A stretch of DNA of 32,000 nt from Trichodesmium erythraeum IMS101 (GTDB taxonomy: Bacteria > Cyanobacteriota > Cyanobacteriia > Cyanobacteriales > Microcoleaceae): contig NC_008312.1 in NCBI RefSeq assembly GCF_000014265.1, positions 4,440,001 to 4,472,000 of the forward strand, written 5' to 3'. Below the pieces are notes generated by a model. It was not told the DNA's origin and ran no database searches. It saw only the letters and a program-made list of their open reading frames with translations. This document shows, in pieces, positions 1-27,170 of this stretch (position 1 is the stretch's first letter; each line of letters opens with the position of its first letter). The position numbers and the translations under genes are program-made.

Positions 1-3000
1 AAAAGCTTTCCCCATTATCTGATAAGCTTCTGAGTTTTTTTCAACTTTAATTACTGAATAGCAGATAGCGATCGCCTCAGAAAACAATCCTTCTAAATAA
101 TAAGTCTTAGCTTGTTTTAATAGTTCTTTAACTTCTGCTTTTTGAGAATAATTAATCTGATTTGTCACTATCTGATTCAACTGCAGTAATTCACCACTTT
201 TCCGTTCAATTTCTGCTGCACTTAGTTGATGACCATTCTGATATTTATCTTCTAATTTTGCTGAGATATTAAAATTCACATCACCCTTTAAACTCTTCTG
301 ATTTTGATTTTTATTTTCCCAAACTTTATCTTTAATTTCTGCTGAATTTAGTTGCTCACCATTCTCGTATTCAGCTTCTAACTTAGCTGAGATATCAGAA
401 TTCATATCAACCTTTAAACTCTTCTGATTTTGATTTTTATTTTCCCCAACTTTATCTTTAATTTTTGCTGAATTTAGTTGATAACCATTCTCGTATTCAG
501 CTTCTAACTTGGCTGAGATATCAGAATTCATATCAACCTTTAAAGTATTCTGATTTTGATTTTTATCTGCCCAAATTTCCTTAGCTTTATGGTAATAAAT
601 AACTGCTTCATCCCATCTTCCGAGACATTTTAATCCCAAACTAAGATTATAGTAAACTGTACCCAAATTAGGATTTAACTCTATAGAATTTTGATAACAA
701 GATACTGCCTGAGCAATTTTTCCTTTCTCATACAATTTATTTCCTAAATTAAAATGGTCATTAGCAGTTACTTTTTTAGGTTCTAAAGAGTAAGCTTGGT
801 ACCAAAAATCTAGAACTCCTAATGTTTCACCTAACTCAGTCAAAACCATCGCTAATTTGTAATAATTCTCAGCCACCTTTAGTTTTATTTCTAACGCTTT
901 TTCATAACAATAAATCACCAAATTCAAAATTTTATACTCAACATATAAATTGCCTAATACTATATAAATTAAACCATAACTTTGCTGAATTTCCAGAGCT
1001 GTTTTGTAACTGCTCTCAGCTTGTTTTATTTCCCCAATTTTTTTCTGAGAATCTCCGATAATTATGTAAGCTGCTGCTACATCTATTTTAAGAGAAATCG
1101 CTTGCTGACATTGAGAAATTGCTTTTTCATAAAATCCCTCCTCATAATATTTTTGAGCTTCCTGAATATAAACATTAGGAATATTTCTCACACCATTAGA
1201 TGTCATATCTTTTAAAAGAAACGTTGAATTTATTTGTTTTACCTCATTGACTTTGGAAATTTCTTTCAGTTTTAAAGTGGAGTGAATAATCTGATTATTA
1301 TTAGCTTTTTTTGGACTATTCATAACGGTTTTTTCTCCCTCTATATTCCCATAAACATTAGTGACATCTGCTTCGATGATTAGAGGTTTATTGGGAGCTA
1401 AAGTTTTCGTAATTTCCTTATAGTTTGTAACCCTTTTATCCTGACTATTTTCTAACACAGATAAAGATGATTCTAGATAATTAACAGAGTCCGATAAATC
1501 ACTTTTTAAATCAAAAGTTGATATCACTCTACTAACTCCTTTACTAACAACTCTTTGAAAATTTTCAGGTTTCTGAATAATATGAATTGTATCATCAGCC
1601 CGAACCTGCTGAATTATTCCCTGACTATTTTGGTGATTTTCTCCTATTAGTAAATTGAGAGAATTTTCGAGATTTTGCCAATAATTAGGAAACACTTTTG
1701 TAGTAGGTTTCTTTGTTCCTTGCAGTTTTAATGCTTCCCCTAAACTTTCATAAGCTCCTAATAAATTAGGATTTAATTCTATCGCCCGACAATAGCACGA
1801 TATTGCTTGAGAAATTACCTTTTGTTGCAGCAGACTATTTCCTAATATTAAATGTTCTTCTGCTGTAGCTTTTCCAGGCTCTAAACTGTAGGCTTGATAC
1901 AAACAGTTATCACCTTTTGTCTTCTTACCAACTTTTCTCCAAGCTATAGCTAGTTGACGGTAAGCATCAGCATAATTTGGCTGGATAACCAAAGATTTTT
2001 GATAACATTTAATTGCTTCTATCCATTGTTCCTGTTGAGCATATAAACTACCGATATTCAGATAAATTTCTGGGTCATTTTTTTCTAAAGAAAGAAATTT
2101 TTTATAGGACTGCCAAGCTGCTTCTACTTCCCCTTGAGATTGCAATCTTTTGCCTAACTTTTTGTAGTATAAAGTTAATTTTATGGCTTGATTTTCTGGA
2201 GTTATTTTTTGATTAACAGGTTCTAAATATTCAGCCTTTATCGAAAATTTTTCCGCCTCAGTATAGCTGCCAATTTTTTGATAAATTCTGGCTAAGTTTC
2301 GGTAAACTCCGGCAAATTTTGGTTGAATTTTTAGAGCTTTTTGATAATAACTTATTGCTTCTTGCCACTGTTCTTTTTTTACAGATAATGTGCCTAAGTT
2401 AGCATAAGCTTCTGCAAAATTTGGCTGATATTCTATAGCTTTTGTATACCAATACCAGGCGGTTTCTATTTGACCTTGAGCATAAAAAACATTCCCTAAA
2501 GTTTTACAAGCTGGGCTATAATCTGGTTGAGATTTTAAGGCTTGAGTACAGGTAGTTTTGGCTAATTCTAATTCTTTTTGCTTTAAGTATAATTCTGCTT
2601 GTTTATTTAACTGACCAGCTATTTCTTGGGAGTTAACTTTTAATGATATTTTTTGACCTACCTGTTTCATCGGTAGCTTCTTCTTTTCCTGAGATATTTT
2701 TTTCCTAATACCTACTTGTTGTTCTTTCTGAATAGACGCTTTTATCTCACTACTGAAAACTGTTTCTAGTATTTTTTTCTTCTCAATAATGCCAAGAACT
2801 TTTAGAGCTTTTTCTAAAGAATTAAGATTCAGGATAATATCTTCTGTCAGAGGATTTTGATACATTAATTTCCGGATGGGAGCACAACCAAAATCTTCTC
2901 CTTTTAAATAGTAATGTTCCAGTCCTATTTTTTGGCTAATCCCACAATAATAATGTCTAATATAGTTAGGTGATACTAATTCTATAACTTTAGTTCCTCT

Positions 3001-5142
3001 AGGAGAAAATATAATATTTGTCAGTCCACTACCATGAGCTCCAATAATCACTTTGGCATGAGAAAATATGGCTATCTGCTCTTTCAAATTCATTGAGTCT
3101 GGCTGAATACAAACAAAACCTATTTCACTTAATTTTAAGAGTACTTCTTCTTCATTGAAAACTCGTCTATATCGTGAATTATTTCTACTTATATATATCC
3201 TTTCTGGATAGAATGAGCTGGTTTTATTTTCTGTAAATATCTCCTGTTTTATTCTTGATAAAAATACCTGACGGTGAAATTCTAAACTCCAGGATGTTAG
3301 CCTACCTAAATCTCCAGGAAATGAGGGAACAATTAATTTTTTAGCTTGGATATAAGGGTGCTGTTCGCTGGAGATAATTTTATTTTGGGGAATACCTAAT
3401 ACATTCAAACTTTCCCTTTGAAATGGCATCTGATAATTACTAACTAAAAAAAAATCTATTTCTTTTAAGTCTATGCCATGAAGCTTTAGAATTTCTAACC
3501 TCGGCAATATATCTACCATCCAATGAAAATATACATGGTCATATAATCCTGATAATACTGCTACTTTACCATCTATTTTTTCTAATTCTGGTAGTTCTTC
3601 TAAGTCAAAAATTTCTTGTTTATTTTCATCAGAATTTTGACATCCTAGCTGACCTGCTTCGTTCCAGGAAAGCTCTTTTACAAGTTGATTATCTTGATTG
3701 ATAATTGCTATTGCATTATTAATCATCCCATATTTTTTCTGGGGTACAACCCATGCCCTACCTGATAGTAGTTGAGCTACAAATGTTTCTGTTTCTGCTC
3801 TTTTTAATGAGTTATTTTGGCTGAGAATATTTGTCGTTGTTTGATTTTCTGAACAGCTATAAATTCTACTGCCTAAGTGGAGCATATTAAATTCTTGAAA
3901 ATTTTGTTCCCACCATGGTCTACTGTTTAATCTTTCACAGGATGATGATAAAAATTTCGGCTTTTTCTGAGCTTTTTTTGATTTTGATAAACTCTGCAAA
4001 TTCTCTAATATTTCGGGATGCTCTGGATAAGTTTCTAATCCTAGATTAGTAATAATAATTGCTGAATTTATCAGATTTTGCTTGACTAAACTCTTACCTA
4101 GCTTGACATATTCTTCTGCTGTTACTGTTTCCAGTTCTAAAGCTTTTTTATAATAAATTTTTGCTTGTTCATCCTGGTCAGATTCTCCTGATACATTCCC
4201 TAAATGTAGATAGATTTCTATCAGGTATTGAGAAATTTCTTTCAGAGATAATGAATTGGGAAAATTAGAGTTTTTTAGAGCTTTTAAAAAGTTGGCGCCG
4301 GCTACTTTCCCTTTGTCTAATTCATCTGTACTTTCTGCTAATAAATTACTCCATTTACAGTAACCTTCCACAAAAGAATTGTTCTGAATAGCTTTTTGTA
4401 AATTAGTCATGGCTTCTGAGAGTTTTCCTTGTTCCATTAGGGAATAAAAACTCTCACTATAAGCTGTTAGATTTTCTGGTTCTAGTTCTATGATTTGCTG
4501 AAAATATTTAACTGCTTTTTCATGTAATCCCTGACTTTGATATACTTGACCAAGATGATAAAGAGATATGGTAAATTGAGGTTCTAACTTTAGGGATTTT
4601 TTCAAGTAAGTTATTGCCTGGTCTAATTGACTTTTTTGTAATAGGGCTTGACCAATATTATTGTAGATAGTAAAGTCGTCTGGTTTCAGCAATAAAGCTT
4701 CTTTAAATACAGCAATTGCTGCATCTGATTGACCTTGATGCAATAAAATACAACCCCAATTACTGTAACAATTAACTATAGTTTCATGAGAGTTACTTTT
4801 CTCACTTTTTGATAAGTTTATTGCTTGCTGATAACTATCAATTGCTGAAATTAATAAACCTTGATTTTGCAAGACAATGCCCAGATTATAATAAGCGTTA
4901 ATATCGTCTGGTTTTAGGGCAATTGCTTTTTTATAGCTCTGATATGCTCCTAATAAATCTCCCTGTTGATAGTGTATAATCCCTAAGTTATAGTTAACTT
5001 GTTGTAAATTTGGATTCTGATTTAGTGCCTGTTGATAATAAAATGCTGCTTCTTCTAATTGGCCTTTTTCCTGGCACAATGAACCTTTAATTGCGATGTT
5101 TTTAGCTTCATCTATCAGTTGAATAACAGGAGTATTTTGCAT
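1..5142 (-). CDS. Giant TPR / GT61 (DUF563) glycosyltransferase / TPR multidomain protein, C-terminus beyond the window edge (at least 1714 aa)
   Basis: ATG at 5142 (cat on + strand) has GGAG about 11-14 nt upstream and an in-frame TAA two codons upstream. Hand translation gives MQNTPVIQLIDEAKNIAIKGSLCQEKGQLEEAAFYYQQALNQNPN..., a TPR sequence. The same frame is still open and TPR-like at positions 1-60 (..EAYQIMGKAF) and across 2641-2820. The track lists no minus-strand ORF here, as expected if no stop occurs before position 1. The middle part carries a GT61/DUF563 signature (AKVIIGAHGSGLTNIIFSPRGTKVIEL). Confidence 0.8.
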   Translation of the reverse strand, partial: MQNTPVIQLIDEAKNIAIKGSLCQEKGQLEEAAFYYQQALNQNPNLQQVNYNLGIIHYQQGDLLGAYQSYKKAIALKPDDINAYYNLGIVLQNQGLLISAIDSYQQAINLSKSEKSNSHETIVNCYSNWGCILLHQGQSDAAIAVFKEALLLKPDDFTIYNNIGQALLQKSQLDQAITYLKKSLKLEPQFTISLYHLGQVYQSQGLHEKAVKYFQQIIELEPENLTAYSESFYSLMEQGKLSEAMTNLQKAIQNNSFVEGYCKWSNLLAESTDELDKGKVAGANFLKALKNSNFPNSLSLKEISQYLIEIYLHLGNVSGESDQDEQAKIYYKKALELETVTAEEYVKLGKSLVKQNLINSAIIITNLGLETYPEHPEILENLQSLSKSKKAQKKPKFLSSSCERLNSRPWWEQNFQEFNMLHLGSRIYSCSENQTTTNILSQNNSLKRAETETFVAQLLSGRAWVVPQKKYGMINNAIAIINQDNQLVKELSWNEAGQLGCQNSDENKQEIFDLEELPELEKIDGKVAVLSGLYDHVYFHWMVDILPRLEILKLHGIDLKEIDFFLVSNYQMPFQRESLNVLGIPQNKIISSEQHPYIQAKKLIVPSFPGDLGRLTSWSLEFHRQVFLSRIKQEIFTENKTSSFYPERIYISRNNSRYRRVFNEEEVLLKLSEIGFVCIQPDSMNLKEQIAIFSHAKVIIGAHGSGLTNIIFSPRGTKVIELVSPNYIRHYYCGISQKIGLEHYYLKGEDFGCAPIRKLMYQNPLTEDIILNLNSLEKALKVLGIIEKKKILETVFSSEIKASIQKEQQVGIRKKISQEKKKLPMKQVGQKISLKVNSQEIAGQLNKQAELYLKQKELELAKTTCTQALKSQPDYSPACKTLGNVFYAQGQIETAWYWYTKAIEYQPNFAEAYANLGTLSVKKEQWQEAISYYQKALKIQPKFAGVYRNLARIYQKIGSYTEAEKFSIKAEYLEPVNQKITPENQAIKLTLYYKKLGKRLQSQGEVEAAWQSYKKFLSLEKNDPEIYLNIGSLYAQQEQWIEAIKCYQKSLVIQPNYADAYRQLAIAWRKVGKKTKGDNCLYQAYSLEPGKATAEEHLILGNSLLQQKVISQAISCYCRAIELNPNLLGAYESLGEALKLQGTKKPTTKVFPNYWQNLENSLNLLIGENHQNSQGIIQQVRADDTIHIIQKPENFQRVVSKGVSRVISTFDLKSDLSDSVNYLESSLSVLENSQDKRVTNYKEITKTLAPNKPLIIEADVTNVYGNIEGEKTVMNSPKKANNNQIIHSTLKLKEISKVNEVKQINSTFLLKDMTSNGVRNIPNVYIQEAQKYYEEGFYEKAISQCQQAISLKIDVAAAYIIIGDSQKKIGEIKQAESSYKTALEIQQSYGLIYIVLGNLYVEYKILNLVIYCYEKALEIKLKVAENYYKLAMVLTELGETLGVLDFWYQAYSLEPKKVTANDHFNLGNKLYEKGKIAQAVSCYQNSIELNPNLGTVYYNLSLGLKCLGRWDEAVIYYHKAKEIWADKNQNQNTLKVDMNSDISAKLEAEYENGYQLNSAKIKDKVGENKNQNQKSLKVDMNSDISAKLEAEYENGEQLNSAEIKDKVWENKNQNQKSLKGDVNFNISAKLEDKYQNGHQLSAAEIERKSGELLQLNQIVTNQINYSQKAEVKELLKQAKTYYLEGLFSEAIAICYSVIKVEKNSEAYQIMGKAF
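215..592 (-). repeat. In-frame tandem repeat, 3 x 126 bp (42 aa), inside the giant TPR CDS
   Basis: Units begin at 215, 341 and 467 (gctgaatttagttg...). Copies 2 and 3 are almost identical over about the first 100 nt. Copy 1 is more diverged, and copy 3 diverges at its distal end. Encoded unit is roughly KDKVGENKNQNQKSLKVDMNSDISAKLEAEYENGxQLNSAEI. Confidence 0.85.
2780..3900 (-). other. GT61/DUF563-type glycosyltransferase domain inside the giant TPR protein (approximate bounds)
   Basis: Translated motifs: YFHWMVDILPRL, IQAKKLIVPS, RIYISRNNSRYRRVFNEEEV, GAHGSGLTNIIF, GTKVIEL. The domain is collinear with the split ORFs at 18278..19264. Confidence 0.65.
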
Positions 5143-5882: not shown

Positions 5883-5921
5883 ATACTTAATATTTTATAT
5901 TTTCTCTATTTTCTCCCTTTA

Positions 5922-5946
5922 TAGCAATCGAAGCAAAGGTTAGGAC
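5922..5946. repeat. IS630 terminal inverted repeat, left in + coordinates
   Basis: Pairs with 6843-6867 (23 of 25 positions). Confidence 0.8.
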
Positions 5947-5964
5947 GTTAACTTAACAGCATAA

Positions 5965-6498
5965 TCAACTCTCAATGCGAAAATTTTCTATTGTTCCTTC
6001 TGACTTTCTGACTCGATTTTTAATTGGAAACCAATAATGTTCTATTTCATTTAAGTCAGGAGAATATGGTGGTAAATATTCAAGCTCACAATTCACTGAT
6101 TCTATTAATTCTCTAACTTTTTGGGATTTATGAAAACTTGCATTGTCTAATATTACTAATTGTCCTGTTTTTAATTGTGGCAACAATTTTTCTCTCAACC
6201 ATTTTTCAAAAACTACACGGTTACAAGAGCCTTCAAATGTTAATGGAGCAACTAATTTTCCTTCACACAAACCACTTACAATACTTACCCTTAGACTTCT
6301 TTTTCCTGACTTTAAATCGTAATATCTTTTTCCCAATTCATTCCATCCATAACCATAATCTTCTCTATTATCCATACCTGATTCATCTATATACACTAGC
6401 TGTTCCGGCCTTTTATCGCGAATTTTGGCCAGAAATTTCTTTCTTTTGTCTTCATCTCTTTCTCTGTAACCGTAAGTTTTTTTTTCTTGTATAACCAA
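5965..6498 (-). CDS. IS630 transposase, DDE catalytic part (orfB). It is out of frame with orfA, and the real N-terminus is probably supplied by orfA
   Basis: Motifs YIDESGMDN, LVILDNASFHKS and YLPPYSPDLNEIEHYW. There are 34 residues between the second Asp and the Glu (DD34E, Tc1/IS630 type). Confidence 0.8.
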   Translation of the reverse strand: MVIQEKKTYGYRERDEDKRKKFLAKIRDKRPEQLVYIDESGMDNREDYGYGWNELGKRYYDLKSGKRSLRVSIVSGLCEGKLVAPLTFEGSCNRVVFEKWLREKLLPQLKTGQLVILDNASFHKSQKVRELIESVNCELEYLPPYSPDLNEIEHYWFPIKNRVRKSEGTIENFRIES

Positions 6499-6811
6499 TT
6501 TTTTTTAAGGCTTTACTTATAGTGCGATCGCTTACCTTATCTGGCCATTCATCAGCCATTTCTTTTTGAGTTTTACTGCCATTAATCTGGGCAAATTTTC
6601 TGAATTGTTCTAAGTCTGGTATTTTGGGATTATATCCTTTTTGATAACCTGTTTTTGCTTTTATATCCCCAGTTTCTCTTCTTCTATGTAACCAAGTATT
6701 GATGGTATTACGACTAATCTTAAATATAGAACTTACTTGAGTTTTACTCATCCCACCATCAATGGCCTTAATAACTTTTTGTCTTAAGTCATAGCTATAA
6801 GGAGAAGGCAT
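6452..6811 (-). CDS. IS630 transposase, N-terminal HTH part (orfA)
   Basis: 119-aa ORF MPSPYSYDLRQKVIKAIDGGMSKTQVSSIFKISRNTINTWL... with two HTH-like segments. It ends just after an A9 run. Confidence 0.8.
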   Translation of the reverse strand: MPSPYSYDLRQKVIKAIDGGMSKTQVSSIFKISRNTINTWLHRRRETGDIKAKTGYQKGYNPKIPDLEQFRKFAQINGSKTQKEMADEWPDKVSDRTISKALKKIGYTRKKNLRLQRKR

Positions 6812-6842
6812 AATCTTTCCTAGATAATTTTTCGAGCATTAT

Positions 6843-6867
6843 GTCCTAATCTTTGCTTCGACTGCTA
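6843..6867. repeat. IS630 terminal inverted repeat, right in + coordinates
   Basis: Reverse complement of 5922-5946 with two mismatches. Confidence 0.8.
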
Positions 6868-7184
6868 TATTATTTAATTTTAATTTTTTTTTACTTTTAT
6901 TTACAATTTTAGATTTTGAACATAGTATTGCTTTTCACTATTTCTATCCACTTCCTTGTCAACTACATTAATACTCACATTCTACACTTCAATTGTATGA
7001 CAACAGTTTACAGGCAACCTCTCCATTTAATTTACTTAGAATTATTTATGGTGTTTAGTAACTACAAGTAAGATCATAAAGCTGATGATAAAATGGCCTT
7101 TTCGCGATAGCATTATTATTTAGTTTTCAAAAAATGTTTTTATAGGTATTATAAATACAAATATATTTATTAAGAATAATATTT

Positions 7185-8186
7185 ATGTCAACCACTACTA
7201 CCACTCCACGGGTAAGTGTAATTATACCCGTATACAATTGCGATCGCTATATTAATCAAGCTATAGAAAGCATTTTCGCCCAAACCTATCAATCTTATGA
7301 AATTATTGTAATTGATGATGGCTCCACAGACAATACCCGCAAGACCATGGAACCTTATATGGAGATGATCCATTATGTATATCAACAAAATCAAGGGGTT
7401 TCAGCTGCCCGGAATCATGGCATTAATTTGGCGCGGGGAGAATTAATCGCTTTTTTGGATGCAGATGATTTTTTCCTACCAGATAAACTGACTGCTCAAG
7501 TAAAAGTATTTGACGCTAAACCAAATTTAGGAATTGTTCACAGTGGGTGGCGCAGAGTGAATCAGCAGGGTGAAACTATTAAGGATGAGACGCCTTGGGA
7601 TTATGTGCCTAAGTTAAATTTAGAAGGTTGGTTGCGCTGGAAACCAATTGGCACAATGGGTACTTTGATGTTTCGACGCAGTTGGTTGCAAGAGGTGGGG
7701 AGTTTTGAGGTAGGATTAGGTCAGGCTGAGGATGTAGACTTAGTATTGCGTTTATCTGTAAAGGGTTGTGAGGCTGAGTGGTTGCGACAGTCTACTATTT
7801 GTTATCGTCAGCATGACCAGAATACAATGCGGGATGGAGTGTCTCAGGTGCAATCTATTAATCGGGTTTTGGATAAATTTTTTGCCTCGGAGTCTCTACC
7901 CTTAGAGATTAGGTTATTGGAAAAACAGTTGCGCTACAATACTTTAGTCTGGTGTTCATGGTATTTGTACTATACAGGTTTTTCTGCTGAGATGGTGGAA
8001 TATTTACAAAAGTCTTGGCAGTATACTCCTTTTTTACCTGTGGGAACGGTAATTAATTGGATTGAAAGTTTTACAGAATTTTCTGAGAATATGGGGGATG
8101 ATTTGGATGCTGATAAATTAGGGAAAACTGATGAATGGCAACAGTTAATGGGTTGGGTGATTAGTAATAGTGGGGCTAACTACTGA
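7185..8186 (+). CDS. Family 2 glycosyltransferase (GT-A fold)
   Basis: VSVIIPVYNCDRYINQAIESIFAQTYQSYEIIVIDDGSTDNT ... AARNHGINLARGELIAFLDADD is a classic GT2 N-terminal domain with a DxD motif. Confidence 0.85.
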   Translation: MSTTTTTPRVSVIIPVYNCDRYINQAIESIFAQTYQSYEIIVIDDGSTDNTRKTMEPYMEMIHYVYQQNQGVSAARNHGINLARGELIAFLDADDFFLPDKLTAQVKVFDAKPNLGIVHSGWRRVNQQGETIKDETPWDYVPKLNLEGWLRWKPIGTMGTLMFRRSWLQEVGSFEVGLGQAEDVDLVLRLSVKGCEAEWLRQSTICYRQHDQNTMRDGVSQVQSINRVLDKFFASESLPLEIRLLEKQLRYNTLVWCSWYLYYTGFSAEMVEYLQKSWQYTPFLPVGTVINWIESFTEFSENMGDDLDADKLGKTDEWQQLMGWVISNSGANY

Positions 8187-15347: not shown

Positions 15348-15596
15348 TCAGAGATTTCTTGTTAAAGAATATAAGAGAGAATATCCTCCAAAAAATAGAA
15401 CAGGAACTGCTATCATCACAATTATTGAACCTAAAGGAGCTTCAGAAGAAATTACATAGACTAATATTGCTGTATAGGGAACTAATACTCCAATTCCAGC
15501 AAGAGTTAATTTTTTAGGAGTCCATTTAATCTCTTTTTTCTGAACTTTTGTCAGCATCTTTAGGTCTTTCCCTTTTAAAATCTTACCTCTTGGCAT
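15348..15596 (-). CDS. Small hypothetical membrane protein (82 aa, two predicted TM helices)
   Basis: Lys-rich N-terminus followed by two hydrophobic stretches (LAGIGVLVPYTAILVYVI and GSIIVMIAVPVLFFGGYSLLY). Same strand as the TPR-sulfotransferase gene and 88 bp downstream of it. Confidence 0.5.
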   Translation of the reverse strand: MPRGKILKGKDLKMLTKVQKKEIKWTPKKLTLAGIGVLVPYTAILVYVISSEAPLGSIIVMIAVPVLFFGGYSLLYSLTRNL

Positions 15597-18277: not shown

Positions 18278-19944
18278 TCAGATTATTTTTGCTAATTTCA
18301 TTAAGTTTAGTAGTTTTTGTAAATCAACAATAATATCTTTATTAGCTGATTTACTAGAGAAATTATCATCAAATTCCTCACCTATTAACTGGTAGTATTC
18401 CCAGCCACATATATTACTCAAAAGCCAATAATAATTCATTACATATTCTGGGTGAAAAATTTCTATAACTTTAGTTCCAGGATGGCAAAATACAAGGTTA
18501 GTTAAACCAGAGCCATGGGTTGCTACTATAATAACTTGACTATAAGGTAGTAACGATGCCTGTTGTGTCACTGAAATTGATTCTAGATTTATACTTTTAA
18601 AACCAAATTTTTCTAATAAATTAACCACCTCTTGTTCATTAACTATTCATCGGCTTGATGCTTTTTTCCGGCTAATATATATTCTTTTAGCCTTACTAGA
18701 TGATTGTTCTCCAGTCTTTACAGGTAAAAATAAACCTCTCAAAAATGCACAACCCCATTGTGTAAATCTCATATTTTTACCATGATGACTAGATAAGGAA
18801 GGAACTAGTAATTTTTTAGCTTTTATGTGAGGAAAATATTGGCTTTCTATAATTTTATTTGATGAAATTATTAATGCTTCAATAGTTTCTTTTTGAAAAG
18901 GTAAATCGCAGCGACTGAAAACAAATTTATCTATTTTTAAATGGCTGTGACGTAACAAGTGAACTCTCGTTACTACATCAAATACCCAATGAAAATAATT
19001 TTTTTGACCCCATTTTGTCGATAAAAAAGCAACTGTTCCATCTATATTAATTGCATGAGGTAATCGTGAATAAGATATAATTAACTCAGGAACACCAGAG
19101 GAAATATCTGATACTAATTTATTATCTGAAGTCATTATAGCGCTATTAAAATTATCTCCCCAAGCTCTTCCATTTTCCAATATTACTAAAAATGCTTCTT
19201 CAGAGTCAATTTGACACCGTTTAAAAGCACGATGAATATTTTTATTTATAGTCTGAGATAACAATAAATTTATTTGACTAGAAGGGTATATATCAATTCG
19301 AGTTATTGTTTTTGCTGAAAGTGTAATAACTTGCTAATCTCCTGTTAATTGACAAAACTTTTCCAGTAAATTTTTTGGTAATTTCTTAGAAAATCTACAC
19401 TTAAACGCAGTATTAATATAATTTTGTTTTTCCAAAACTTTAGCTATTTGATGGTAGACATCTATATAGCTAGATTTAATCTGTAGAGATTGAACAAAAC
19501 AGGCGATCGCCTCTTCAACTTTCCCTACTTCTAATAACTTATCTCCTAAATTTAAGCATTCTGTTGCTGAAACTGATGTTGGCTCTAAAATAAGTGCTTT
19601 ATATCTGCATTCTATTACTAATTTATTCTCACCTAAACCCTCCCATATTTTCGCCTATTCCTATTGCTTTTGTATAGCAATTATACTACCTAAATTTGCA
19701 TAATATTCTGCTAAATTATGATTTTTTATATGGCTTTTATATAGTAGTTTTTAGCTAATTCTAGCCCACCCATTTTTTGCATAATATTACCCATAATATT
19801 ATGTAATTCCCTGCATTTGGGTGAGCTTTATCTAGATTTTAAACAAGTAAAATAAGCTTCATCTAACTTTCCTTGAGATAAATATATTTCAGCTTTTTGC
19901 TTTCCATTAAATACTGCTATTTTTTGATTATCTATATCTGCCAT
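18278..19944 (-). pseudogene. Decayed TPR-GT61/DUF563 glycosyltransferase gene
   Basis: ORFs 18647..19264 and 18278..18628 are in the same frame and separated only by a TGA at 18644-18646 (..KKASSR*IVNEQEVVNLLEKFGF..). They carry ATHGSGLTNLVF. Upstream, the TPR leader starting at ATG 19944 is interrupted by a TAA at 19828-19830 and further stops. A TAG at 19334-19336 and frame changes separate it from the GT61 part. Confidence 0.8.
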
Positions 19945-20034: not shown

Positions 20035-22080
20035 TTACCAATTAAACTTTATACCCAAATACTCTTCTAATCTCTGATTATGAGGTTGAAAATATTTAGA
20101 TAATCTTTGACGCAGCAAATCAGAAATTGGTGTATAAGAACCAGAATTTAACTTTTTATATTTTGCCAGTTTATGTTCTGGCAAACCTAAAAAATCAAAT
20201 ACTTGCTTCATGGTATTATCGGGCGTTTGATAAAGGTCTTCTCCTCTCAAAATTAAAAATTGTTTCTTAGGAAATAATCCCATCCATTTCTGTATAAATT
20301 CTATATAAACACCTCTCCCTATATAATTTCCTGATAGTCGCCAATATTTTCTATCTCCTTGGGGTTGTTTAGGAGTAGTTTTCAGTATTTCTAATTCCTG
20401 ATTAATTGCAACTTCAAAAGAGCGGTCTTCCCAGTTTAATCTCTGCCAATGATGATATTGAGAAAAAGCTCTATCTACTGGATTTCTTAAAATCACCAAT
20501 AGTTTAATATTAGGCAGTAAACTATAGATTCTTTCTGGAATTTTATCAGTGACTAAATAATTAGGAGTAGCTTCCCCAGTAATCAAATTTTGCGACTTAG
20601 GAATGGGAGGAAAATGAGCCAGATACCAATCTATTCCTTGATTAAATTCCCGTGACCAAAAATGGGTTTCTTTCTTAATAGCTGGTAATACTTGGGGGTG
20701 TTGACTAATATAACTTGCTAAAGAAGTCGTACCACTTTTTTGAGAACCAATAATAATGAAATTAGGACGCGCTACATTATCAAAGTTCCAATACTTGTCG
20801 ACAAAGGCAGGATTTGATTTTTTTGTTTTGTTGTAACAAGCTGTTTGATAGCTGTTAATTGCTTCTTTTATATTTCCTTTTTCTGTAAAAATTTCTCCTA
20901 GGTTAAGATGACACAAAATACTATTTGGCTCTTTTTTTGTGGCATCTTGATATAAATTTAATACTTCCTCAAGCCGACTTTTTAGTAAGTGTTTCCATAA
21001 TACTGAATGATGAGAATACCAAGAATGTTCTGGTCTAAGTCTAATAGCTTCTAAGTAAGTAATAATAGCTTCCTCTTTTTGAGAATTGTGTAAAAAAGCA
21101 TCAGCTAAATTATAGTATGTATTAGAGAAATTTGGGTTAATAATAGTTGCTTTGTCGTAAGCAGCGATCGCTTTATCCCATTTTTGTTGTTTAGTATAGA
21201 CATTACCTAAACTATGGTAACTCCAAAAGAAATTTGGATTTATTTCTATAGCTTTTTCGTAACAGGATATTGCCACATCTAGCTTACCCATTTTTTCCCA
21301 AACATCTCCTAATTTTTTGTGGAATAAATGATTTTCTGGTTTTAATTCTATAGCACGACTATAATCTGAAATTGCTAACTTATATTGTCCCTGTTTTTGC
21401 CAAACTTCCCCGAGTAAGTAGTAACATCTAGGGTTTTTAGCATCTATCTTAATTCCTTCGCGTAAAGCTATTAATGCTGACTCTAATTCCCCATTTTTTA
21501 CCAACAATTCTCCTAAATTTTGATATCCTGCTGACAAATTAGGATTAATTTTAACAGCATTACGGTAACATTTAATTGCTGCCTCTATTTTGTTTAATTC
21601 TAATAATTTTTTTCCTATATTCAAATGCTCTATAGCTGTAGCTGATTCCGGTTCTAGGATAAGTGCTTTATAAGTATATTCTGTGGCTAATTCTTCTTTT
21701 TCAGTACACTCGCAGACTTTCGCTAAATTTCGATAAACTATCGCTAAGTTAGGCTTAATATGGATAGCTTTTTGGTAATAAAAAAATGCTTTTTCCCAGT
21801 CCCTTTGTTTAGCGTACATACTACCAATATTAGCATGGGCTTCAGCAAAATCAGGAAATATTGTTATGGCTTTAAAATAATAATTTTTGGCTGCCTCTAT
21901 ATCTCCTTTGACCTGTAAAATATTGCCTATAGTTTTGTAAGCTGGTGCAAATTCTGGTTGGCTATTTAATGCTTTTAAACAAGCTGCATAAGCTTCATCC
22001 AATTTTCCTTGGGCTAGACTAGATTCTGCTAATTGATGAAAATTAATAGCTACTGTTTCTACCTTTTTATTATTAGACAT
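20035..22080 (-). CDS. TPR-repeat / sulfotransferase fusion protein (681 aa), paralogue 2
   Basis: N-terminal TPR array. The C-terminal 240 aa are very similar to paralogue 1. Confidence 0.85.
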   Translation of the reverse strand: MSNNKKVETVAINFHQLAESSLAQGKLDEAYAACLKALNSQPEFAPAYKTIGNILQVKGDIEAAKNYYFKAITIFPDFAEAHANIGSMYAKQRDWEKAFFYYQKAIHIKPNLAIVYRNLAKVCECTEKEELATEYTYKALILEPESATAIEHLNIGKKLLELNKIEAAIKCYRNAVKINPNLSAGYQNLGELLVKNGELESALIALREGIKIDAKNPRCYYLLGEVWQKQGQYKLAISDYSRAIELKPENHLFHKKLGDVWEKMGKLDVAISCYEKAIEINPNFFWSYHSLGNVYTKQQKWDKAIAAYDKATIINPNFSNTYYNLADAFLHNSQKEEAIITYLEAIRLRPEHSWYSHHSVLWKHLLKSRLEEVLNLYQDATKKEPNSILCHLNLGEIFTEKGNIKEAINSYQTACYNKTKKSNPAFVDKYWNFDNVARPNFIIIGSQKSGTTSLASYISQHPQVLPAIKKETHFWSREFNQGIDWYLAHFPPIPKSQNLITGEATPNYLVTDKIPERIYSLLPNIKLLVILRNPVDRAFSQYHHWQRLNWEDRSFEVAINQELEILKTTPKQPQGDRKYWRLSGNYIGRGVYIEFIQKWMGLFPKKQFLILRGEDLYQTPDNTMKQVFDFLGLPEHKLAKYKKLNSGSYTPISDLLRQRLSKYFQPHNQRLEEYLGIKFNW
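20038..20769 (-). other. Sulfotransferase domain of paralogue 2
   Basis: NFIIIGSQKSGTTSL, IKKETHFW, ILRNPVDRAFSQY. Confidence 0.7.
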
Positions 22081-22204
22081 ATTTTAATCACTTTATTATT
22101 GAAACGCTTGTTTTTAAGTTTTTTTGACTGATTATAACTATTCCATTATTTACCGTATTTAACCAGAAATTTTATAAATTTATAAATAATTAGAAAAATT
22201 TCCA

Positions 22205-22294
22205 TGAACTTCATTTTTACTTTAGCTACACTATCTTCTGCTAGCTGATTAAAATTAATAGCTACTGCTTCTATTTTTTCATTATTAAAATATG
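22205..22294 (-). pseudogene. Relic copy of the 5-prime end of a TPR paralogue, start codon lost
   Basis: 22236-22293 (ttctgctagctgattaaaattaatagctactgcttctattttttcattattaaaatat) aligns with 22024-22083, the first codons of the 20035..22080 gene, at roughly 80 percent identity by eye. The copy is displaced by 212 bp. cat (ATG) is replaced by aat. Confidence 0.6.
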
Positions 22295-22675: not shown

Positions 22676-24022
22676 TTATAAATTATCTTTATTTCTCCAT
22701 TTTTCTGCAGCTTCACTGTCACCTAGCTGCTCAAAGATATAGGCTATTTTTTCGTAAGCTTTATCATAGTCTGGTTTAATTTGTATTGCTTCTCTAAAAC
22801 ATTCGATAGCATCAGACCAATTTTTTTGTTGAATATATACTTTTCCTAATGATGCGTATAACCAACAAGAATTAGAATTAATTTCTATAGCTTTTCGATA
22901 ACTAATAATAGCCTCATCTAATTTCCCAAGCTCCTGCAAAGCATTTGCTAAACTACGATGAAATAAATGATTATTTGCTTTTAACTCTATCGCTTTACTA
23001 TAAACTTTAATTGCTGACCCCCATTTTTTTTGTTTACCCAGTGCTTCCCCTAATAGATAGTGAAACTTAGCTAAATGTGGGTTAAGTTTGATACCTTTAC
23101 GGTAGACAACAACTGCTTGATTTATTTTTCCTTGTTTGACCAATATTTCTCCAATTTTACAGTAAGCATCCCAAATATTAGGATCATTTTTAATCAGTTT
23201 ACGATAACAAGTAAGGGCTTGATTTAACTTACCTTGTTCATACAAAATATCTGCTAAATTTTTGTAAGACCAAGGAAACTTTGGATTAATTTCTATAGCA
23301 CGTTTAAATACTTCTACTGCATCATTTAACTTACCTGTTTCTCGGAAAATTTTTCCTAGTTTATGAAGAATTAACCAATTTTCAGGTAATAGTTTACTTA
23401 AACTTTGATAACAATCTATTGCTGCATCTAATTCTCCCTGATTTACTAAAATTTCTGCTAATTTCGAGTAAGCATCCGATAAAGTAGGATTTAATTCTAT
23501 AGCCTCAAAATAATCAGCGATCGCCTCTTTTATTTTTCCTTTACTAAATAAAACATCCCCCTTATTTAGCTTTTCTAATGCTTTTTTTTCTGATTCTATT
23601 TTTTTTCCGTAATACCAATATTTTTTGGCTAAACCCAAATCTCCTAACTGTTGATAAAGCCGAGATAAATTACGATAAGTACCAGTAAAATTTGGTTGTA
23701 ATTCAATAGCTGTTCTATAACAAGCGATAGCTGGTTCCCACTCTTTTTGTTTAGCATATAAACTACCAATATTTGTATAAACTTCCGCCCAATTTGGTTG
23801 TTGCATAATTGCTTGTACATAGTAATTTATTGCTTCATCTAACTTTCCCATAGCCTGCAATACATTTCCCATACTTTTGCAAGCTAAAGCATAGAATGGT
23901 AATATTTCTAGAGCTTTTTCACAAGCCAAAAAAGCCTCATCTAATTTTTCTGCTTTTAAATGAGACTCTGCTTCTTGACATAAACTAAAAGCCGACATTT
24001 CTGGAGTTAAAGCTGAATACAT
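22676..24022 (-). CDS. TPR-repeat protein (448 aa), no catalytic domain
   Basis: TPR motifs over the whole length. The N-terminal module is homologous to the N-termini of the sulfotransferase paralogues (..ACKSMGNVLQAMGKLDEAINYYVQAI..NWAEVYTNIGSLYAKQKEW..). Confidence 0.85.
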   Translation of the reverse strand: MYSALTPEMSAFSLCQEAESHLKAEKLDEAFLACEKALEILPFYALACKSMGNVLQAMGKLDEAINYYVQAIMQQPNWAEVYTNIGSLYAKQKEWEPAIACYRTAIELQPNFTGTYRNLSRLYQQLGDLGLAKKYWYYGKKIESEKKALEKLNKGDVLFSKGKIKEAIADYFEAIELNPTLSDAYSKLAEILVNQGELDAAIDCYQSLSKLLPENWLILHKLGKIFRETGKLNDAVEVFKRAIEINPKFPWSYKNLADILYEQGKLNQALTCYRKLIKNDPNIWDAYCKIGEILVKQGKINQAVVVYRKGIKLNPHLAKFHYLLGEALGKQKKWGSAIKVYSKAIELKANNHLFHRSLANALQELGKLDEAIISYRKAIEINSNSCWLYASLGKVYIQQKNWSDAIECFREAIQIKPDYDKAYEKIAYIFEQLGDSEAAEKWRNKDNL

Positions 24023-24246
24023 ATTTTTTTGATCAGGAAAAATGAAAAAGTAAAAATAGAATAGAGAATACTTAAATTATTAGTTCTTATTAGGTTCGAC
24101 TTCACCAGAAAACTTAAAATCCTAAATTTCCTTTTTTATTCCCTAAAAAAGGAAAGTTTGAAGCCTTATTTCTTAGTCAAATCTCCCAGAATAAATCTGA
24201 TAGCTTTAACCAAGAGGTTCAAACTCTTAGTCTTTATCAGTCCTAT

Positions 24247-24460
24247 AAAAGCTTTTAGTCTAACTGTACAGAAAGTTTCTTCGCTTTATGACTGTGCCCT
24301 CTGCCTCTTACATTCCCTATTAAATTTTTTAACATAAAATTTATGATAATTTAAAAAAGCTGTTAGTCTAACTATACAGAAAGTTTCTTCCCTTTATGGC
24401 TGTAGTCTCTGCCCTGACATTCTCTATGAAATTTTTCAGTATAAATTTTTTTGATAATTT
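24247..24460. repeat. Intergenic tandem direct repeat, 2 x about 107 bp
   Basis: Copy 1 is 24247-24352 and copy 2 is 24354-24460. Both contain agtctaact(g/a)tacagaaagtttcttc(g/c)ctttatg(a/g)ctgt...gataattt. Similarity is high by eye, with small indels. Confidence 0.8.
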
Positions 24461-24597
24461 CAACAAAATAACAACAATTTATCCATGTAATTTCCAGCTA
24501 TAACAAAGCAACTTCTAGCCTATTTTTTATTTCCTATGTAAGTATTATTTACCAGAAAATTGCCATACACTAACTGCAAAAAATCAATTTTTTTAGA

Positions 24598-26469
24598 TTA
24601 CTCCCAGTTAAATTTTATCCCTAAATATTCTTCTAATTTTTGATTATGAACTTGGAAATAATTACTTAATTTTTTATCCATTAATGGATCGATTTGTGAA
24701 TAATTACCAGGATTATAATTCTTATACTCTAATAGTTCGTATCTTGGCAAATCTAAAAACTTTAAAACTTGCTGTACAATTGCTTGTGGATCAGCATAAA
24801 AATCTTCACTTTTCAAAATTAGTAACTGTTCCCTTGGGAATAAACTCATCCATTCTTTTAAAAATTCAATATATACTCCCTTTGCCAAATAATTCTGTTC
24901 TCCCATCCAATAATTAACTTTTTCTGGATTATTGATTAGCTTATCTAAATCTGATTCAATTGCCTCTTCTAAAGATCGGTTTTCCCAGTTGAATCTTCTC
25001 CAGGTATAATATTGAGATATAGCTCGAACTACAGGATTTCTCAAAAGTATAATCAACTTAATTTTTGGAAAAAATTGATAAATTCTCCTAGCAGCATCAG
25101 GATGATTAAAATAACTAGGACTAGCTTCCCCAGCCAAGATTTTTTTTCCATCTGGAATTACTGGAAAATGAGCCAGATACCAATTAATTGACTCATTAAA
25201 TTTCCAAGACCAAAAATCAATTTCTTTTTTAATAGGAGACATTATTTGTGGGTGTTGAGTCAGATAACCAAAAAGGGAAGTAGTACCTCCTTTTTGCACT
25301 CCAATAATTATAAAATTCGGTCCCTGCACTTGTTCTAAATTCCATGGTTGCGATACTAAACTAGGGTATTTTTTTGTAGTTTGCTGATAACAAGCTGTTT
25401 GATAATAAGGTATAGCTTCATCAATTTTACCCAAACAAGTTAGAGCTTCTCCTATATTTAAATAAGACCAAAAAGAATCGGGATTAGCTTTCTGAAACAT
25501 CTGAAAAAAATTGAGTATTTCCATTAGTTTATCTTCCCTAGCAAAGGCTTCCCATATATTGTGATAAAACCACCAATGAAAATCCGGTTCAATTTCAATA
25601 CCTTGACGGTAAGCAATAACTGCTTCATTCCATTTTTTTTCTCGAGTTAGGGCAATACCTAAATTATAGTAAGACCTACTATTTTGCTTTAATTCTATTT
25701 CTTTTCTTACTTCTAATATTTCTCGTTCTAACTGATTTTTTTTCTCTAATACTTGCTTGAGTTTTTCAAAAATTTTTAGGTAATCTTGATTAATATCTAG
25801 AGCTATTTTATATAAAATAATTGCCCCATTAATTTGATTCGCTTTAGTTAAACCATCTGCTACTTGTACAAGTAAATCAGGGTTTTGTTGTAAAAGTAGT
25901 AGTGATTTATCGTCAATATAATATTGCTTAATATCTTGAATATCTTTGTAGAAATCCTTAATTTTTCCATCTAAGCTTGATTTATGTTTTTCTTCTATAG
26001 CATCTCCTAGTTTACTATAAATTCCTGGTAATTCTGTCTGAAGTTTAGTAGCATAGAGATAGTTATATATAGCTTCATCCCATTTTTTTAACTTGATTAA
26101 AGCATCACCTAAATTGTAGTAAGACCAAGAAAAATTTACATCGACTCTGATTGCATTTTGGTAAGCTTTAACCACCTCATCCCATTTTTCTAGCTTACTT
26201 AACGCATTTGCCAAATTATAATAAGACCAAGCAAAATTAGGATCTAACTCTATTGCTTTATCATAATTTTTTATAGCTTTTTCCCAATCTTTTTTTTGAG
26301 ATAAAGCTTGTGCTAAGTGATAGTAATACCATGAAACATTAGGTTTTAGTATGATAGCTTTACGGTAGTTTTCAATTGCTAAATCCCAATTATTTTCTTG
26401 AACATATATACTACCAAGGTTTGCATACTCTTCAGATGTATTCAAATTTAAATTATTTTTCGACGACAT
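24598..26469 (-). CDS. TPR-repeat / sulfotransferase fusion protein, paralogue 3 (623 aa from ATG 26469; the track ORF starts at TTG 26490)
   Basis: TPR repeats, a coiled-coil-like Lys/Glu segment, then a sulfotransferase domain. It lacks the first TPR module present in the other paralogues. Confidence 0.85.
   Translation of the reverse strand: MSSKNNLNLNTSEEYANLGSIYVQENNWDLAIENYRKAIILKPNVSWYYYHLAQALSQKKDWEKAIKNYDKAIELDPNFAWSYYNLANALSKLEKWDEVVKAYQNAIRVDVNFSWSYYNLGDALIKLKKWDEAIYNYLYATKLQTELPGIYSKLGDAIEEKHKSSLDGKIKDFYKDIQDIKQYYIDDKSLLLLQQNPDLLVQVADGLTKANQINGAIILYKIALDINQDYLKIFEKLKQVLEKKNQLEREILEVRKEIELKQNSRSYYNLGIALTREKKWNEAVIAYRQGIEIEPDFHWWFYHNIWEAFAREDKLMEILNFFQMFQKANPDSFWSYLNIGEALTCLGKIDEAIPYYQTACYQQTTKKYPSLVSQPWNLEQVQGPNFIIIGVQKGGTTSLFGYLTQHPQIMSPIKKEIDFWSWKFNESINWYLAHFPVIPDGKKILAGEASPSYFNHPDAARRIYQFFPKIKLIILLRNPVVRAISQYYTWRRFNWENRSLEEAIESDLDKLINNPEKVNYWMGEQNYLAKGVYIEFLKEWMSLFPREQLLILKSEDFYADPQAIVQQVLKFLDLPRYELLEYKNYNPGNYSQIDPLMDKKLSNYFQVHNQKLEEYLGIKFNWE
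24601..25326 (-). other. Sulfotransferase domain of paralogue 3
   Basis: NFIIIGVQKGGTTSL, IKKEIDFW (Asp where the others have His), LLRNPVVRAISQY. Confidence 0.7.
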
Positions 26470-27170
26470 TTTTGATTTAACATTGATCAATAAAAATTTA
26501 CAGTAGTTTCCTACTTAATAAAGTATATATATTGGTAGTTTTAGGCAATAGGCAAGATGGTTAGCAAAATATGGAAAAAGCAAAAAATACTTACCCCGTC
26601 AGTTGTGGAATATTAATCTAGAATTTTATGTCTTAATTATATAGAGATTTTCATATTAATCAGTATAGTATTTTTACCTATTCCGTGTTGCCTAAAACCA
26701 AAAATTTGTCACCTAACCTAGATTTATAAATGCATTCTTCTTTTCCATTCCCACCGAATTCTAATTATTTAATTGTTATGCATTTCAACCACATAATTAG
26801 ATACACAAAATTTATTATACATATCTTACATAATAGTATACTCTAGTATCAAAATAACAATAATGATAATTTTTCATGGTTTTTATTAGGGAATTAAACA
26901 ACAAAACTAGAAAATTTTTATAAAGAATTAGTCAACACAGTAAATTTCTTCATGTTAGAGACAGAGCTAAATATATAATTTAGTTATCAGAGATTTTCTA
27001 TATATAAATTAGAATTAATACTTAGAGTGAATAGAAAAACCATATATAATTGGTCTACTAGATAGAAAGTTTTCGCATGGAATAGACATCTATAATCACA
27101 AAGATAGAGTTAGCACGGAAAATCTAAGTTAAATCAGGATCAGAATAAAATAGTAAAATAGTTGGTAAGT

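Follow-up and report, generated by a model that had tools for sequence, protein, structure and literature searches.

Sulfated polysaccharides are characteristic of cyanobacteria, but synechan is the only one whose pathway has been dissected. This pathway, encoded by the xss cluster of Synechocystis PCC 6803 and described by Maeda et al., is the only genetically characterised cyanobacterial sulfated-polysaccharide pathway and is of the Wzx/Wzy type (PMC8205485). The same study reports that cyanobacterial sulfotransferase (ST) genes mostly lie within exopolysaccharide (EPS) clusters, and that Trichodesmium erythraeum IMS101, with 30 ST genes, has the highest number in the table of cyanobacteria surveyed (PMC8205485). 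Here we describe an array of genes on a 32,000-nt stretch of the T. erythraeum IMS101 chromosome (NC_008312.1, positions 4,440,001 to 4,472,000; hereafter the window), in which tetratricopeptide repeats (TPRs) are fused to ST domains or to glycosyltransferase family 61 (GT61) domains. As in xss, the STs are clustered with multiple glycosyltransferases (GTs). The xss cluster, however, includes a flippase, a polymerase, a polysaccharide co-polymerase (PCP) and XssQ/R/S, none of which is found in the array, and no TPR is mentioned in the text or supplements of the xss study (PMC8205485).

TPRs joined to a cytoplasmic polysaccharide-modifying domain are known from the Vi antigen pathway of Salmonella Typhi, where TviD (O-acetyltransferase-TPR) and VexE (TPR-acyltransferase) combine such a domain with 9-10 repeats. 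VexE carries 10 TPRs, and the TPR region of TviD is needed for membrane association and for binding of the TviE polymerase, not for catalysis (PMC8760489). The array shares this architecture, whereas the domains involved are SGNH-like acetyl-/acyltransferases in the Vi proteins and 3'-phosphoadenosine 5'-phosphosulfate (PAPS) sulfotransferases or GT61 here. Furthermore, the TPRs of TviD are C-terminal, the Vi locus carries ABC exporter genes that the array does not, and there is no sequence homology between the two beyond generic TPRs. On balance, we consider it probable that the enzymes of the array build a glycan in the cytoplasm and sulfate it at several sites before its export, their TPRs serving as scaffolds of a complex like those of TviD and VexE.

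The literature searched contained no paper that describes TPR-ST/TPR-GT61 arrays or names the window proteins. The genes themselves are already annotated, and sulfated cyanobacterial glycans are known as a theme. GenBank lists the family 2 glycosyltransferase (GT2) as ABG52030, a neighbouring kinase/cyclase as ABG52031, an 82-aa protein as ABG52032, and the STs as ABG52033 (ST832), ABG52034 (ST681) and ABG52036 (623-aa ST), a 623-aa product being called for ST630 in public records. The RefSeq labels are 'sulfotransferase', 'tetratricopeptide repeat protein' or 'tetratricopeptide repeat-containing sulfotransferase family protein'. Apparently new are a conserved architecture, TPRs joined to STs as well as to GT61, a GT2 resembling K4 chondroitin polymerase (K4CP), a small membrane protein, and a link in distant relatives to Wzm/Wzt and adenosine 5'-phosphosulfate (APS) kinase. 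The members of the array and its associated GT genes are the following, with domains assigned by Pfam unless another method is given.

24598..26469, minus strand: ST630 (630/623 aa; alternative TTG start at 26490), TPRs and Sulfotransfer_1 (1.6e-18)
~24598..25323, minus strand: ST domain of ST630
22676..24022, minus strand: TPR448, 448 aa, stand-alone, ~12 TPRs and TPR matches only
22212..22286, minus strand: relic resembling the N-terminus of ST681 (tblastn; 25 aa, 64% identity)
20035..22080, minus strand: ST681, 681 aa, ~10+2 TPRs and sulfotransferase (Sulfotransfer_1, 5.2e-24)
~20035..20769, minus strand: ST domain of ST681
18278..19944, minus strand: decayed TPR-GT61 pseudogene (three-frame translation and PF04577)
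15685..18183, minus strand: ST832, 832 aa, ~15 TPRs and C-terminal PAPS-type sulfotransferase (Sulfotransfer_1, 2.6e-18)
~15685..16422, minus strand: ST domain of ST832
15348..15596, minus strand: 82-aa protein with two predicted transmembrane (TM) helices, a conserved open reading frame (ORF) directly downstream of ST832
7185..8186, plus strand: soluble GT2 (GT-A; PF00535, 5.5e-38)
1..5142, minus strand, open at the left edge of the window: giant TPR-GT61-TPR gene, N-terminal 1714 aa within the window
~2785..3795, minus strand: GT61 catalytic domain of the giant protein (residues 450-786)

A first-pass annotation, made by reading the window sequence, had proposed three TPR-STs, one intact and one decayed TPR-GT61 and one TPR-only protein at this locus. 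Pfam profile searches found these and the GT2 that it had also reported, and all of its domain assignments were borne out at the coordinates given. The relic fragment that it reported also exists, though it is tiny: it matches residues 3-27 of ST681 with an E value of 6.7e-5 (tblastn within the window) and is genuine, if marginal.

All three window STs score far above the curated Sulfotransfer_1 cut-off (PF00685; 22 bits), with 66.8, 85.5 and 67.5 bits. Among sequences in the Protein Data Bank (PDB), the ST681 domain matches 3-OST-5 (1.1e-26) and NDST (5e-23), along with 3-OST-3A1 and 3-OST-1, within a range of 1e-26 to 4e-22. The top 14 matches consist of 3-OSTs and NDST plus one bacterial ST; cytosolic STs of small molecules (steroid, phenol) match only at ~1e-3 or worse, and tyrosylprotein STs are not among the PDB matches. 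That only carbohydrate STs match strongly supports a glycan as the substrate. The motifs IIGSQKSGTTSL, KKETHFW and RNPVDRAFSQY are all there and line up with the 5'-phosphosulfate-binding (PSB) loop, the catalytic Glu/His and the 3'-phosphate-binding (3'-PB) motif of 3-OST-5, respectively. The likeness to the heparan sulfate ST class that the first-pass annotation had read from such motifs is thus real. Judged by their closest relatives, the ST domains would fall in the heparan sulfate 3-OST/NDST class, at ~30% identity, which does not fix the acceptor. In common with animal 3-OST-1/3/5 and NDST they have the GxxKxGT[T/S] PSB loop, the Glu in K-E-x-H-F and the 3'-PB motif R-x-P-x-x-R-x-x-S. 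The animal enzymes, however, lack TPRs and modify heparan sulfate as Golgi-lumenal type II membrane proteins, whereas those of the array are bacterial, TPR-fused and predicted to be cytoplasmic.

An ST-domain profile scan of one genome per species returned 62 related loci; the window locus itself was not among them, the best match being at 91%. We aligned 138 ST domains, the 3 of the window and 135 from these loci. Every one of the 138 has the putative catalytic Glu, the Thr of the PSB loop and the Arg, Arg and Ser of the 3'-PB motif; the PSB-loop Lys is found in 134, with Arg in the other 4. The position of the 3-OST His varies by paralogue (H in 60 domains, D in 34, N in 20 and Y in 16); within the window, ST832 and ST681 have H there, and ST630 has D. 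Since the PAPS-binding and catalytic residues are kept, all ST paralogues look catalytically competent, with differences between them on the acceptor side.

Almost all of the 62 loci are from Microcoleaceae or other filamentous cyanobacteria, including Okeania, Dapis, metagenome-assembled genomes (MAGs) of Trichodesmium, 'Lyngbya', Tychonema and other Oscillatoriales. The gene order ST630-TPR448-ST681-TPR-GT61-ST832-82-aa gene is shared by Dapis, Okeania, Trichodesmium MAGs and other Microcoleaceae. On one side, the array is bordered in Okeania, Dapis and others by genes for chorismate synthase, a metallo-beta-lactamase (MBL) fold protein and a thioredoxin-TPR (Trx-TPR) protein. On the other side, past the 82-aa gene, relatives have either the orthologous GT2 on the opposite strand or an E1-like/YcaO gene; it is the GT2, and not YcaO, in at least six orthologous loci. 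A GT61 ORF is present in 30 of the 62 loci (TPR-fused in 25), and a GT2 lies within 10 kb in 12. Furthermore, Okeania and Dapis carry a second, paralogous array, in which a divergent triple-module GT2 stands beside a TPR-GT61 gene followed by three TPR-ST genes. The first-pass annotation had proposed to look in related genomes for co-localisation of TPR-ST, TPR-GT61 and GT2 genes; we found it to be conserved across at least six genera.

Between genera, orthologous TPR arrays are 57-83% identical and ST domains 69-90%. For ST832, identity between orthologues is 75-83% across the TPR part and 79-89% across the ST part, and orthologues of the stand-alone TPR448 (450-457 aa) occupy the same slot with 67-79% identity. 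The paralogues within the window are only 29-43% identical in their TPR arrays and 53-71% in their ST domains, the highest value being that of ST681 and ST832 (71%). As orthologues are far more similar than paralogues, the duplications must be old, and each copy, with its TPR array, individually constrained. The paralogues are older than the split between Trichodesmium, Okeania and Dapis. The expansion into paralogues, which the first-pass annotation had linked to diversified target recognition, is not supported as a recent event.

The same comparisons bear on whether the array is a pathway at all, or an unlinked pile-up of tandem duplicates of a TPR-enzyme family that are tolerated without having a joint role. 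One member is a pseudogene, the 25-aa relic adds a second trace of decay, some members are separated by ~600-nt intergenic gaps, and insertion sequence (IS) and relic sequences lie nearby, all of which would suit such a pile-up. It is nevertheless very improbable, because the genes and their order are kept from genus to genus, identity is 57-90% between orthologues and 29-54% in most comparisons of paralogues (71% for the ST domains of ST681 and ST832), all catalytic residues are retained, and the set of ST, GT61 and GT2 arose also in the second array and in distant taxa. The conserved synteny largely refutes it.

The giant protein has a Glyco_transf_61 domain (PF04577/DUF563; 1.8e-32, 112.9 bits against a cut-off of 27 bits) with TPRs on both flanks. 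The first-pass annotation was therefore right about the GT61 and TPR domains of this gene, whereas the GT61 domain is internal and not C-terminal as it had supposed. On a Tara Oceans contig (L072:1005-8873) that is 99% identical to the window, the full-length protein is 2622 aa. An AlphaFold model of its GT61 domain (pLDDT 87) has POMGNT2 as all of its top 16 PDB fold matches (E 4.8e-11, TM-score 0.56), with 12-14% identity to eukaryotic GT61s, and EOGT is a weak sequence match. Membership in GT61 is therefore backed by profile, fold and sequence alike. POMGNT2 glycosylates a sugar acceptor. Both POMGNT2 and EOGT differ from the giant protein in being ER-lumenal and in having no TPRs. The last ~340 aa of the giant protein on L072 have a sub-threshold GT8 match (E 0.011) and no PDB sequence match; they look like a GT-A domain. 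A 1902-aa protein of Tychonema shares the TPR-GT61-TPR architecture with 37% identity over ~1800 aa, and its gene adjoins a TPR-ST gene.

The giant gene contains an in-frame tandem repeat of 126 nt x 2.9 (window 208..575). A second contig, L074, carries a 1534-aa version of the protein, representing either a real length polymorphism or an assembly collapse of repeats. Downstream of the giant gene, beyond the left edge of the window, both contigs carry a GH18 chitinase-like gene (L072:1-911 and L074:2-913). A metagenome scan with this gene returned only eukaryote-like chitinases at up to 61% identity, and no Trichodesmium contigs; several of the matching contigs bear names that may be those of marine metatranscriptome sets.

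The second GT61 gene of the window, located between ST681 and ST832, is interrupted by one frameshift and at least five in-frame stops; both GT61 halves match PF04577, with 39.5 and 24.6 bits. Identical broken ORFs were found on 4 independent metagenome or MAG contigs, and the decay is therefore not a sequencing error. Intact TPR-GT61 orthologues of 677-678 aa fill this slot in several related loci (L016, L022-L024 and L027), whereas the gene is shortened or fragmented in Trichodesmium and some Okeania. Being broken in some lineages and intact in others, the in-array TPR-GT61 is the dispensable member of the set.

The GT2 scores 131 bits against Glycos_transf_2 (PF00535; cut-off 23.3 bits). 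Its best PDB match is K4CP (overall E 2.8e-33), and it aligns over 213 residues, with 86 bits, to the second GT-A module of that enzyme (chain residues 369-578), the LDADDF of its DxD region aligning to LDSDDF of K4CP. Heparosan synthase also matches (1.2e-11). NCBIfam matches are all far below cut-off, including NodC (1.9e-8, below the family cut-off). The window GT2 has a single GT-A module, so that its likeness to K4CP is at the level of the GT2 family, and there are no kps genes nearby. In the second array, however, the corresponding 985-aa protein (L040) consists of three modules, each with 46-53% identity to the window GT2, and thereby resembles the bifunctional glycosaminoglycan (GAG) polymerases K4CP and Pasteurella heparosan synthase. 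The GT2 had been described as stand-alone in the first-pass annotation; this is too simple, as an orthologue flanks the array in relatives (85% identity in Okeania L010) and the triplicated paralogue flanks the second array. In IMS101, the GT2 and giant GT61 genes are divergent and head-to-head, separated only by a strain-specific IS630 insertion. Hydropathy analysis revealed no TM segments or hydrophobic N-termini in the ST, GT61 or GT2 proteins, which fits cytoplasmic chemistry with PAPS and NDP-sugars.

Short TPR-STs of ~400 aa (3-4 TPRs plus ST) occur widely, among others in Microcoleus, Nostoc, Tolypothrix and Kamptonema. In Tolypothrix PCC 7910 (L070), two TPR-ST genes are located beside genes for Wzm (ABC2_membrane), Wzt (ABC_tran and Wzt_C) and APS kinase, together with a GT1-PhyH protein and UbiA-TPR fusions. 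In Tychonema (L068), two TPR proteins come after the counterpart of the giant GT61 gene, and then a TPR-ST, a methyltransferase, a GT1/GT2 fusion, a GT4 and APS kinase; APS kinase also adjoins the L065 cluster. Nostoc punctiforme UO1 has two TPR-STs with GT1/GT2 proteins and a UbiA-TPR fusion, and another genome has two with two GT2s, a GT1, a carbamoyltransferase and a GDSL-like enzyme. Three metagenome contigs (L158, L160 and L161) carry 2-5 TPR-STs each with GT1, GT2, GT4 and GT10 enzymes; their set also includes FkbM-type methyltransferases, STs of the Sulfotransfer_2 and Stf0 types, TPR-GT61, an NDP-sugar epimerase/reductase and a carbamoyltransferase. Microcoleus and Phormidium have a solitary TPR-ST, with SLH-domain and RTX (HemolysinCabind) genes and a polysaccharide deacetylase in its vicinity. 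Where transport or sulfate-activation genes accompany TPR-STs, they are of polysaccharide type. The surface glycan that the first-pass annotation had offered as one possible target gains support from these clusters with APS kinase, Wzm/Wzt, nucleotide-sugar enzymes and many GTs; the Wzm/Wzt of L070 points to a route other than the Wzx/Wzy one of xss.

The fusions of TPRs to a UbiA prenyltransferase that adjoin TPR-STs (L070:722-2881, L070:7724-9472 and L156:18764-21227) include one that also carries a methyltransferase.

Some of these neighbours could instead speak for a small glycoconjugate. Examples would be a glycolipid or an oligosaccharide signal that is sulfated, methylated or fucosylated, in the manner of Nod factors or heterocyst glycolipids, or else a glycosylated natural product. 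Distant TPR-STs occur with a carbamoyltransferase, methyltransferases, a GT10 fucosyltransferase and a protein combining fatty-acyl-AMP ligase, PCP (here a carrier protein) and thioesterase, and carbamoyl, methyl, fucosyl and acyl decorations are familiar from Nod factors. The GH18 chitinase-like gene next to the giant GT61 gene and the lack of polymer export genes in the window would also fit. We consider such a product improbable, as the GT2 is without a NodC-type membrane domain and its NodC match is weak, genes for acyltransferases or lipid synthesis were not seen in the window or the orthologous loci, the Wzt with Wzt_C in L070 indicates a polymer, and TPR scaffolds of >5000 residues in total are hard to rationalise for a small molecule.

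The TPR arrays themselves match no specific family: an NCBIfam search of the window proteins gave generic TPR equivalogs only, almost all below cut-off, and the MamA and PilW models reach their cut-offs on TPR content alone. An AlphaFold model of ST681 (pLDDT 91) has ~10 canonical TPRs, a short linker and 2 proximal repeats before the ST domain. In fold searches, its TPR region is closest to the TPR superhelix of O-GlcNAc transferase (OGT; 1.1e-17, 24-27% identity) and to SPINDLY. Scores almost as high are reached by designed consensus TPRs, and the likeness to OGT is therefore generic. Asn at TPR position 6, checked as a mark of an OGT-type Asn ladder, occurs in 2-6 of 10-21 repeats; as Asn at this position also falls within the general TPR consensus, the check is uninformative. 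TPR448, which consists of TPRs only, is a candidate scaffold. The 82-aa protein has a basic N-terminus, two predicted TM helices (hydropathy maximum 2.18) and no Pfam match. Its orthologues are highly conserved and directly follow the ST832 orthologue in 17 related loci, and it may be a membrane anchor or partner of the TPR enzymes.

An N-terminal TPR superhelix directly followed by a transferase, as in the ST681 model, is also the architecture of OGT, SPINDLY and FlmG, and the first-pass annotation had compared the array to OGT, in which the TPRs select protein substrates. A protein-directed system of this kind is conceivable but rather unlikely. In it, the TPRs would bind cytoplasmic or pre-secretory proteins such as pilins, S-layer or RTX/oscillin-type proteins, GT61 would start or extend an O-glycan on these, and the STs would sulfate this glycan or Ser/Thr/Tyr side chains. 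In Caulobacter, the TPR domain of FlmG binds flagellins and is required for their glycosylation (PMC7591256). The GT61 relatives POMGNT2 and EOGT act on glycoproteins, each paralogue of the array has a distinct and conserved TPR region, as would be expected for specific partners, a single TPR-ST lies near the SLH-domain and RTX genes in Microcoleus and Phormidium, and the window is without export genes. The catalytic domain of OGT and SPINDLY, however, is GT41, whereas that of the array proteins is Sulfotransfer_1 or GT61, and the TPR likeness to OGT is shared with designed consensus repeats. To our knowledge Trichodesmium has no flagellins, and, in contrast to FlmG with its flagellins, no candidate protein-substrate gene was recognised beside the arrays or TPR-STs in ~70 related loci. 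The neighbours that are found (GTs, sugar methyl- and carbamoyltransferases, NDP-sugar enzymes, APS kinase and Wzm/Wzt) suit a glycan that is free or linked to a lipid, and up to five TPR-STs plus other ST families per cluster suggest dense sulfation of a polymer. The STs are closest to polysaccharide STs rather than tyrosylprotein STs, and TviD and VexE show that TPR fusion occurs in polysaccharide pathways too. Selection of proteins by the TPRs is thus not supported by anything beyond the architecture.

In the assembly and sulfation of an exported glycan, which we prefer, soluble GT2 and GT61 enzymes would add sugars to a growing glycan at the cytoplasmic face of the membrane, and the three PAPS-dependent STs would each sulfate a separate acceptor position. 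The TPR arrays and TPR448 would hold these enzymes together at the membrane in an ordered complex, instead of choosing protein substrates, and the 82-aa two-TM protein would possibly link this complex to the membrane. Export, probably of the ABC (Wzm/Wzt) type, and PAPS synthesis would be encoded elsewhere in the Trichodesmium genome, and the product would be a sulfated extracellular, sheath or slime polysaccharide at the cell surface. ABC-transporter pathways for O-antigens and capsules complete the polymer in the cytoplasm. An ABC route would fit, because the polymer is then finished where PAPS-dependent enzymes can reach it. The carbohydrate acceptor, the sequence in which the steps occur, the TPRs as scaffold, the 82-aa protein as anchor and the route of export are inferred.

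Several observations weigh against this proposal. As the first-pass annotation had noticed, there are no polysaccharide export or PAPS synthesis genes in the window: homologues of Wzm, Wzt and APS kinase were not found, nor were flippase, polymerase or PCP families of the Wzx/Wzy type among the Pfam-scanned ORFs, or a priming transferase. Genes for an exporter, priming transferase, flippase, polymerase or PAPS synthesis are likewise absent from the orthologous loci of Okeania, Dapis and Trichodesmium, where the flanks are housekeeping genes. The link to Wzm/Wzt consists of one distant cluster, and that to APS kinase of three (L070, L068 and L065). With 10-15 N-terminal TPRs before a transferase, the STs have the layout of protein modifiers, the TPR model of ST681 being structurally closest to that of OGT, and GT61s with solved structures act on protein-linked glycans or proteins. 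The likeness of the GT2 to K4CP is at the level of the GT-A module and fixes neither donor, acceptor nor processivity. Finally, the literature searched contained neither a structure of a sulfated polysaccharide from Trichodesmium nor expression or genetic data on genes of the array.

Between the GT2 and the 82-aa gene, as well as upstream of the GT2, the window contains three further features.

14646..14883, plus strand: YcaO relic (tblastn with the YcaO of L023)
8673..14090, minus strand: 1805-aa Ser/Thr kinase-AAA16-GAF-adenylate/guanylate cyclase (Pfam)
~5901..6868, minus strand: IS630-family element (DDE_3 and HTH_Tnp_IS630 ORFs)

The YcaO relic corresponds to the last ~80 codons of an E1-like/YcaO cyclodehydratase gene and is frameshifted; an intact YcaO gene (765-826 aa) is found at its position in 8 relatives. 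The YcaO gene is followed by an Amidohydro_2 gene in L008, L011 and L023, and in L023 then by a gene 80% identical to the kinase/cyclase of the window. The latter falls in the same 90%-identity cluster as Tery_3863, with a STAND-like AAA16 domain and a class III cyclase. It has a sub-threshold match to TIGR03903 (TOMM kinase/cyclase) and generic matches to PD-T4-6/mad6 kinases and the Pycsar cyclase. Judging from its neighbours in relatives, the kinase/cyclase probably belongs to the adjacent, decayed YcaO module and interrupts the array, and a neighbouring module of the type producing ribosomally synthesised and post-translationally modified peptides (RiPPs) seems to have been lost in IMS101.

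This raises the question of whether the array serves a RiPP (YcaO/TOMM-type) pathway, where YcaO and the kinase/cyclase would produce a peptide for decoration by the GT and ST enzymes. An E1-like/YcaO gene 0.2-2 kb past the 82-aa gene in 8 related loci, the relic in the window and the TIGR03903 match would agree with this. YcaO has, however, decayed to an ~80-codon relic here while the three STs, TPR448, GT2 and 82-aa gene are intact and conserved; GT2 takes its place after the array in at least six orthologous loci, its orientation differs among loci, no precursor peptide gene was seen, and it is lacking in the distant TPR-ST clusters. A RiPP role for the array is accordingly extremely improbable, and with YcaO decayed here and absent from distant clusters we rejected it as the function of the STs and GTs.

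The IS630 element has inverted-repeat ends and a two-ORF (frameshifted) transposase. The segment is missing from L072, which is 99% identical, and the insertion is therefore strain-specific. It could affect expression of the giant GT61 gene and the GT2.

The DNA of the window has ~30% G+C, and many marine metagenome contigs carry the same genes. Among ST630, TPR448 and ST681, the gaps of ~600 nt are unusually long for an operon, and a tandem repeat of 108 nt x 2 lies between ST630 and TPR448 (24247..24460). Upstream of ST630 is a 1.6-kb region (26491..28061) of 25-27% G+C, in which any ORF is shorter than 80 aa. Thioredoxin-TPR, MBL-fold and chorismate synthase genes (Pfam) are located to the right of the array. 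The MBL-fold gene (28895..29809, minus strand) overlaps the chorismate synthase gene by 17 nt, and its product has a weak precomputed Pfam flag for the anti-Pycsar protein Apyc1. A defence system was considered and rejected, as a PADLOC scan returned only generic TPR and kinase matches. Rfam and tRNA scans of the window found nothing.

The kinship of the STs with 3-OST/NDST and of the GT2 with K4CP allows a more specific version of glycan assembly, which we regard as improbable: a GAG-like polymer made by filamentous cyanobacteria wholly in the cytoplasm, with GT2 and GT61 building the chain, a fixed set of heparan sulfate-type STs writing sulfation at multiple positions, and a TPR assembly line setting the order or spacing of the modifications. 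If true, this assembly line would be a bacterial counterpart, and a possible evolutionary source, of the animal Golgi 'GAGosome', and the GAG-like product would, in Trichodesmium, be the acidic exopolymer implicated in colony formation and in the capture of dust and iron.

Trichodesmium is a globally important N2 fixer, whose colonies, exopolymer particles and capture of dust-borne iron depend on acidic surface polymers. The comparison made here defines a conserved gene set of three apparently competent STs with differing acceptor-site residues, a candidate TPR scaffold, a GT61, a K4CP-like GT2 and a small membrane protein. The array is ancient and under constraint, and distant relatives tie this set to the supply of PAPS and to export of the ABC type. 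Should the TPR arrays turn out to organise sequential sulfation, they would represent a new organising principle for glycan modification, and the array would be a source of bacterial carbohydrate STs for making defined sulfated glycans.

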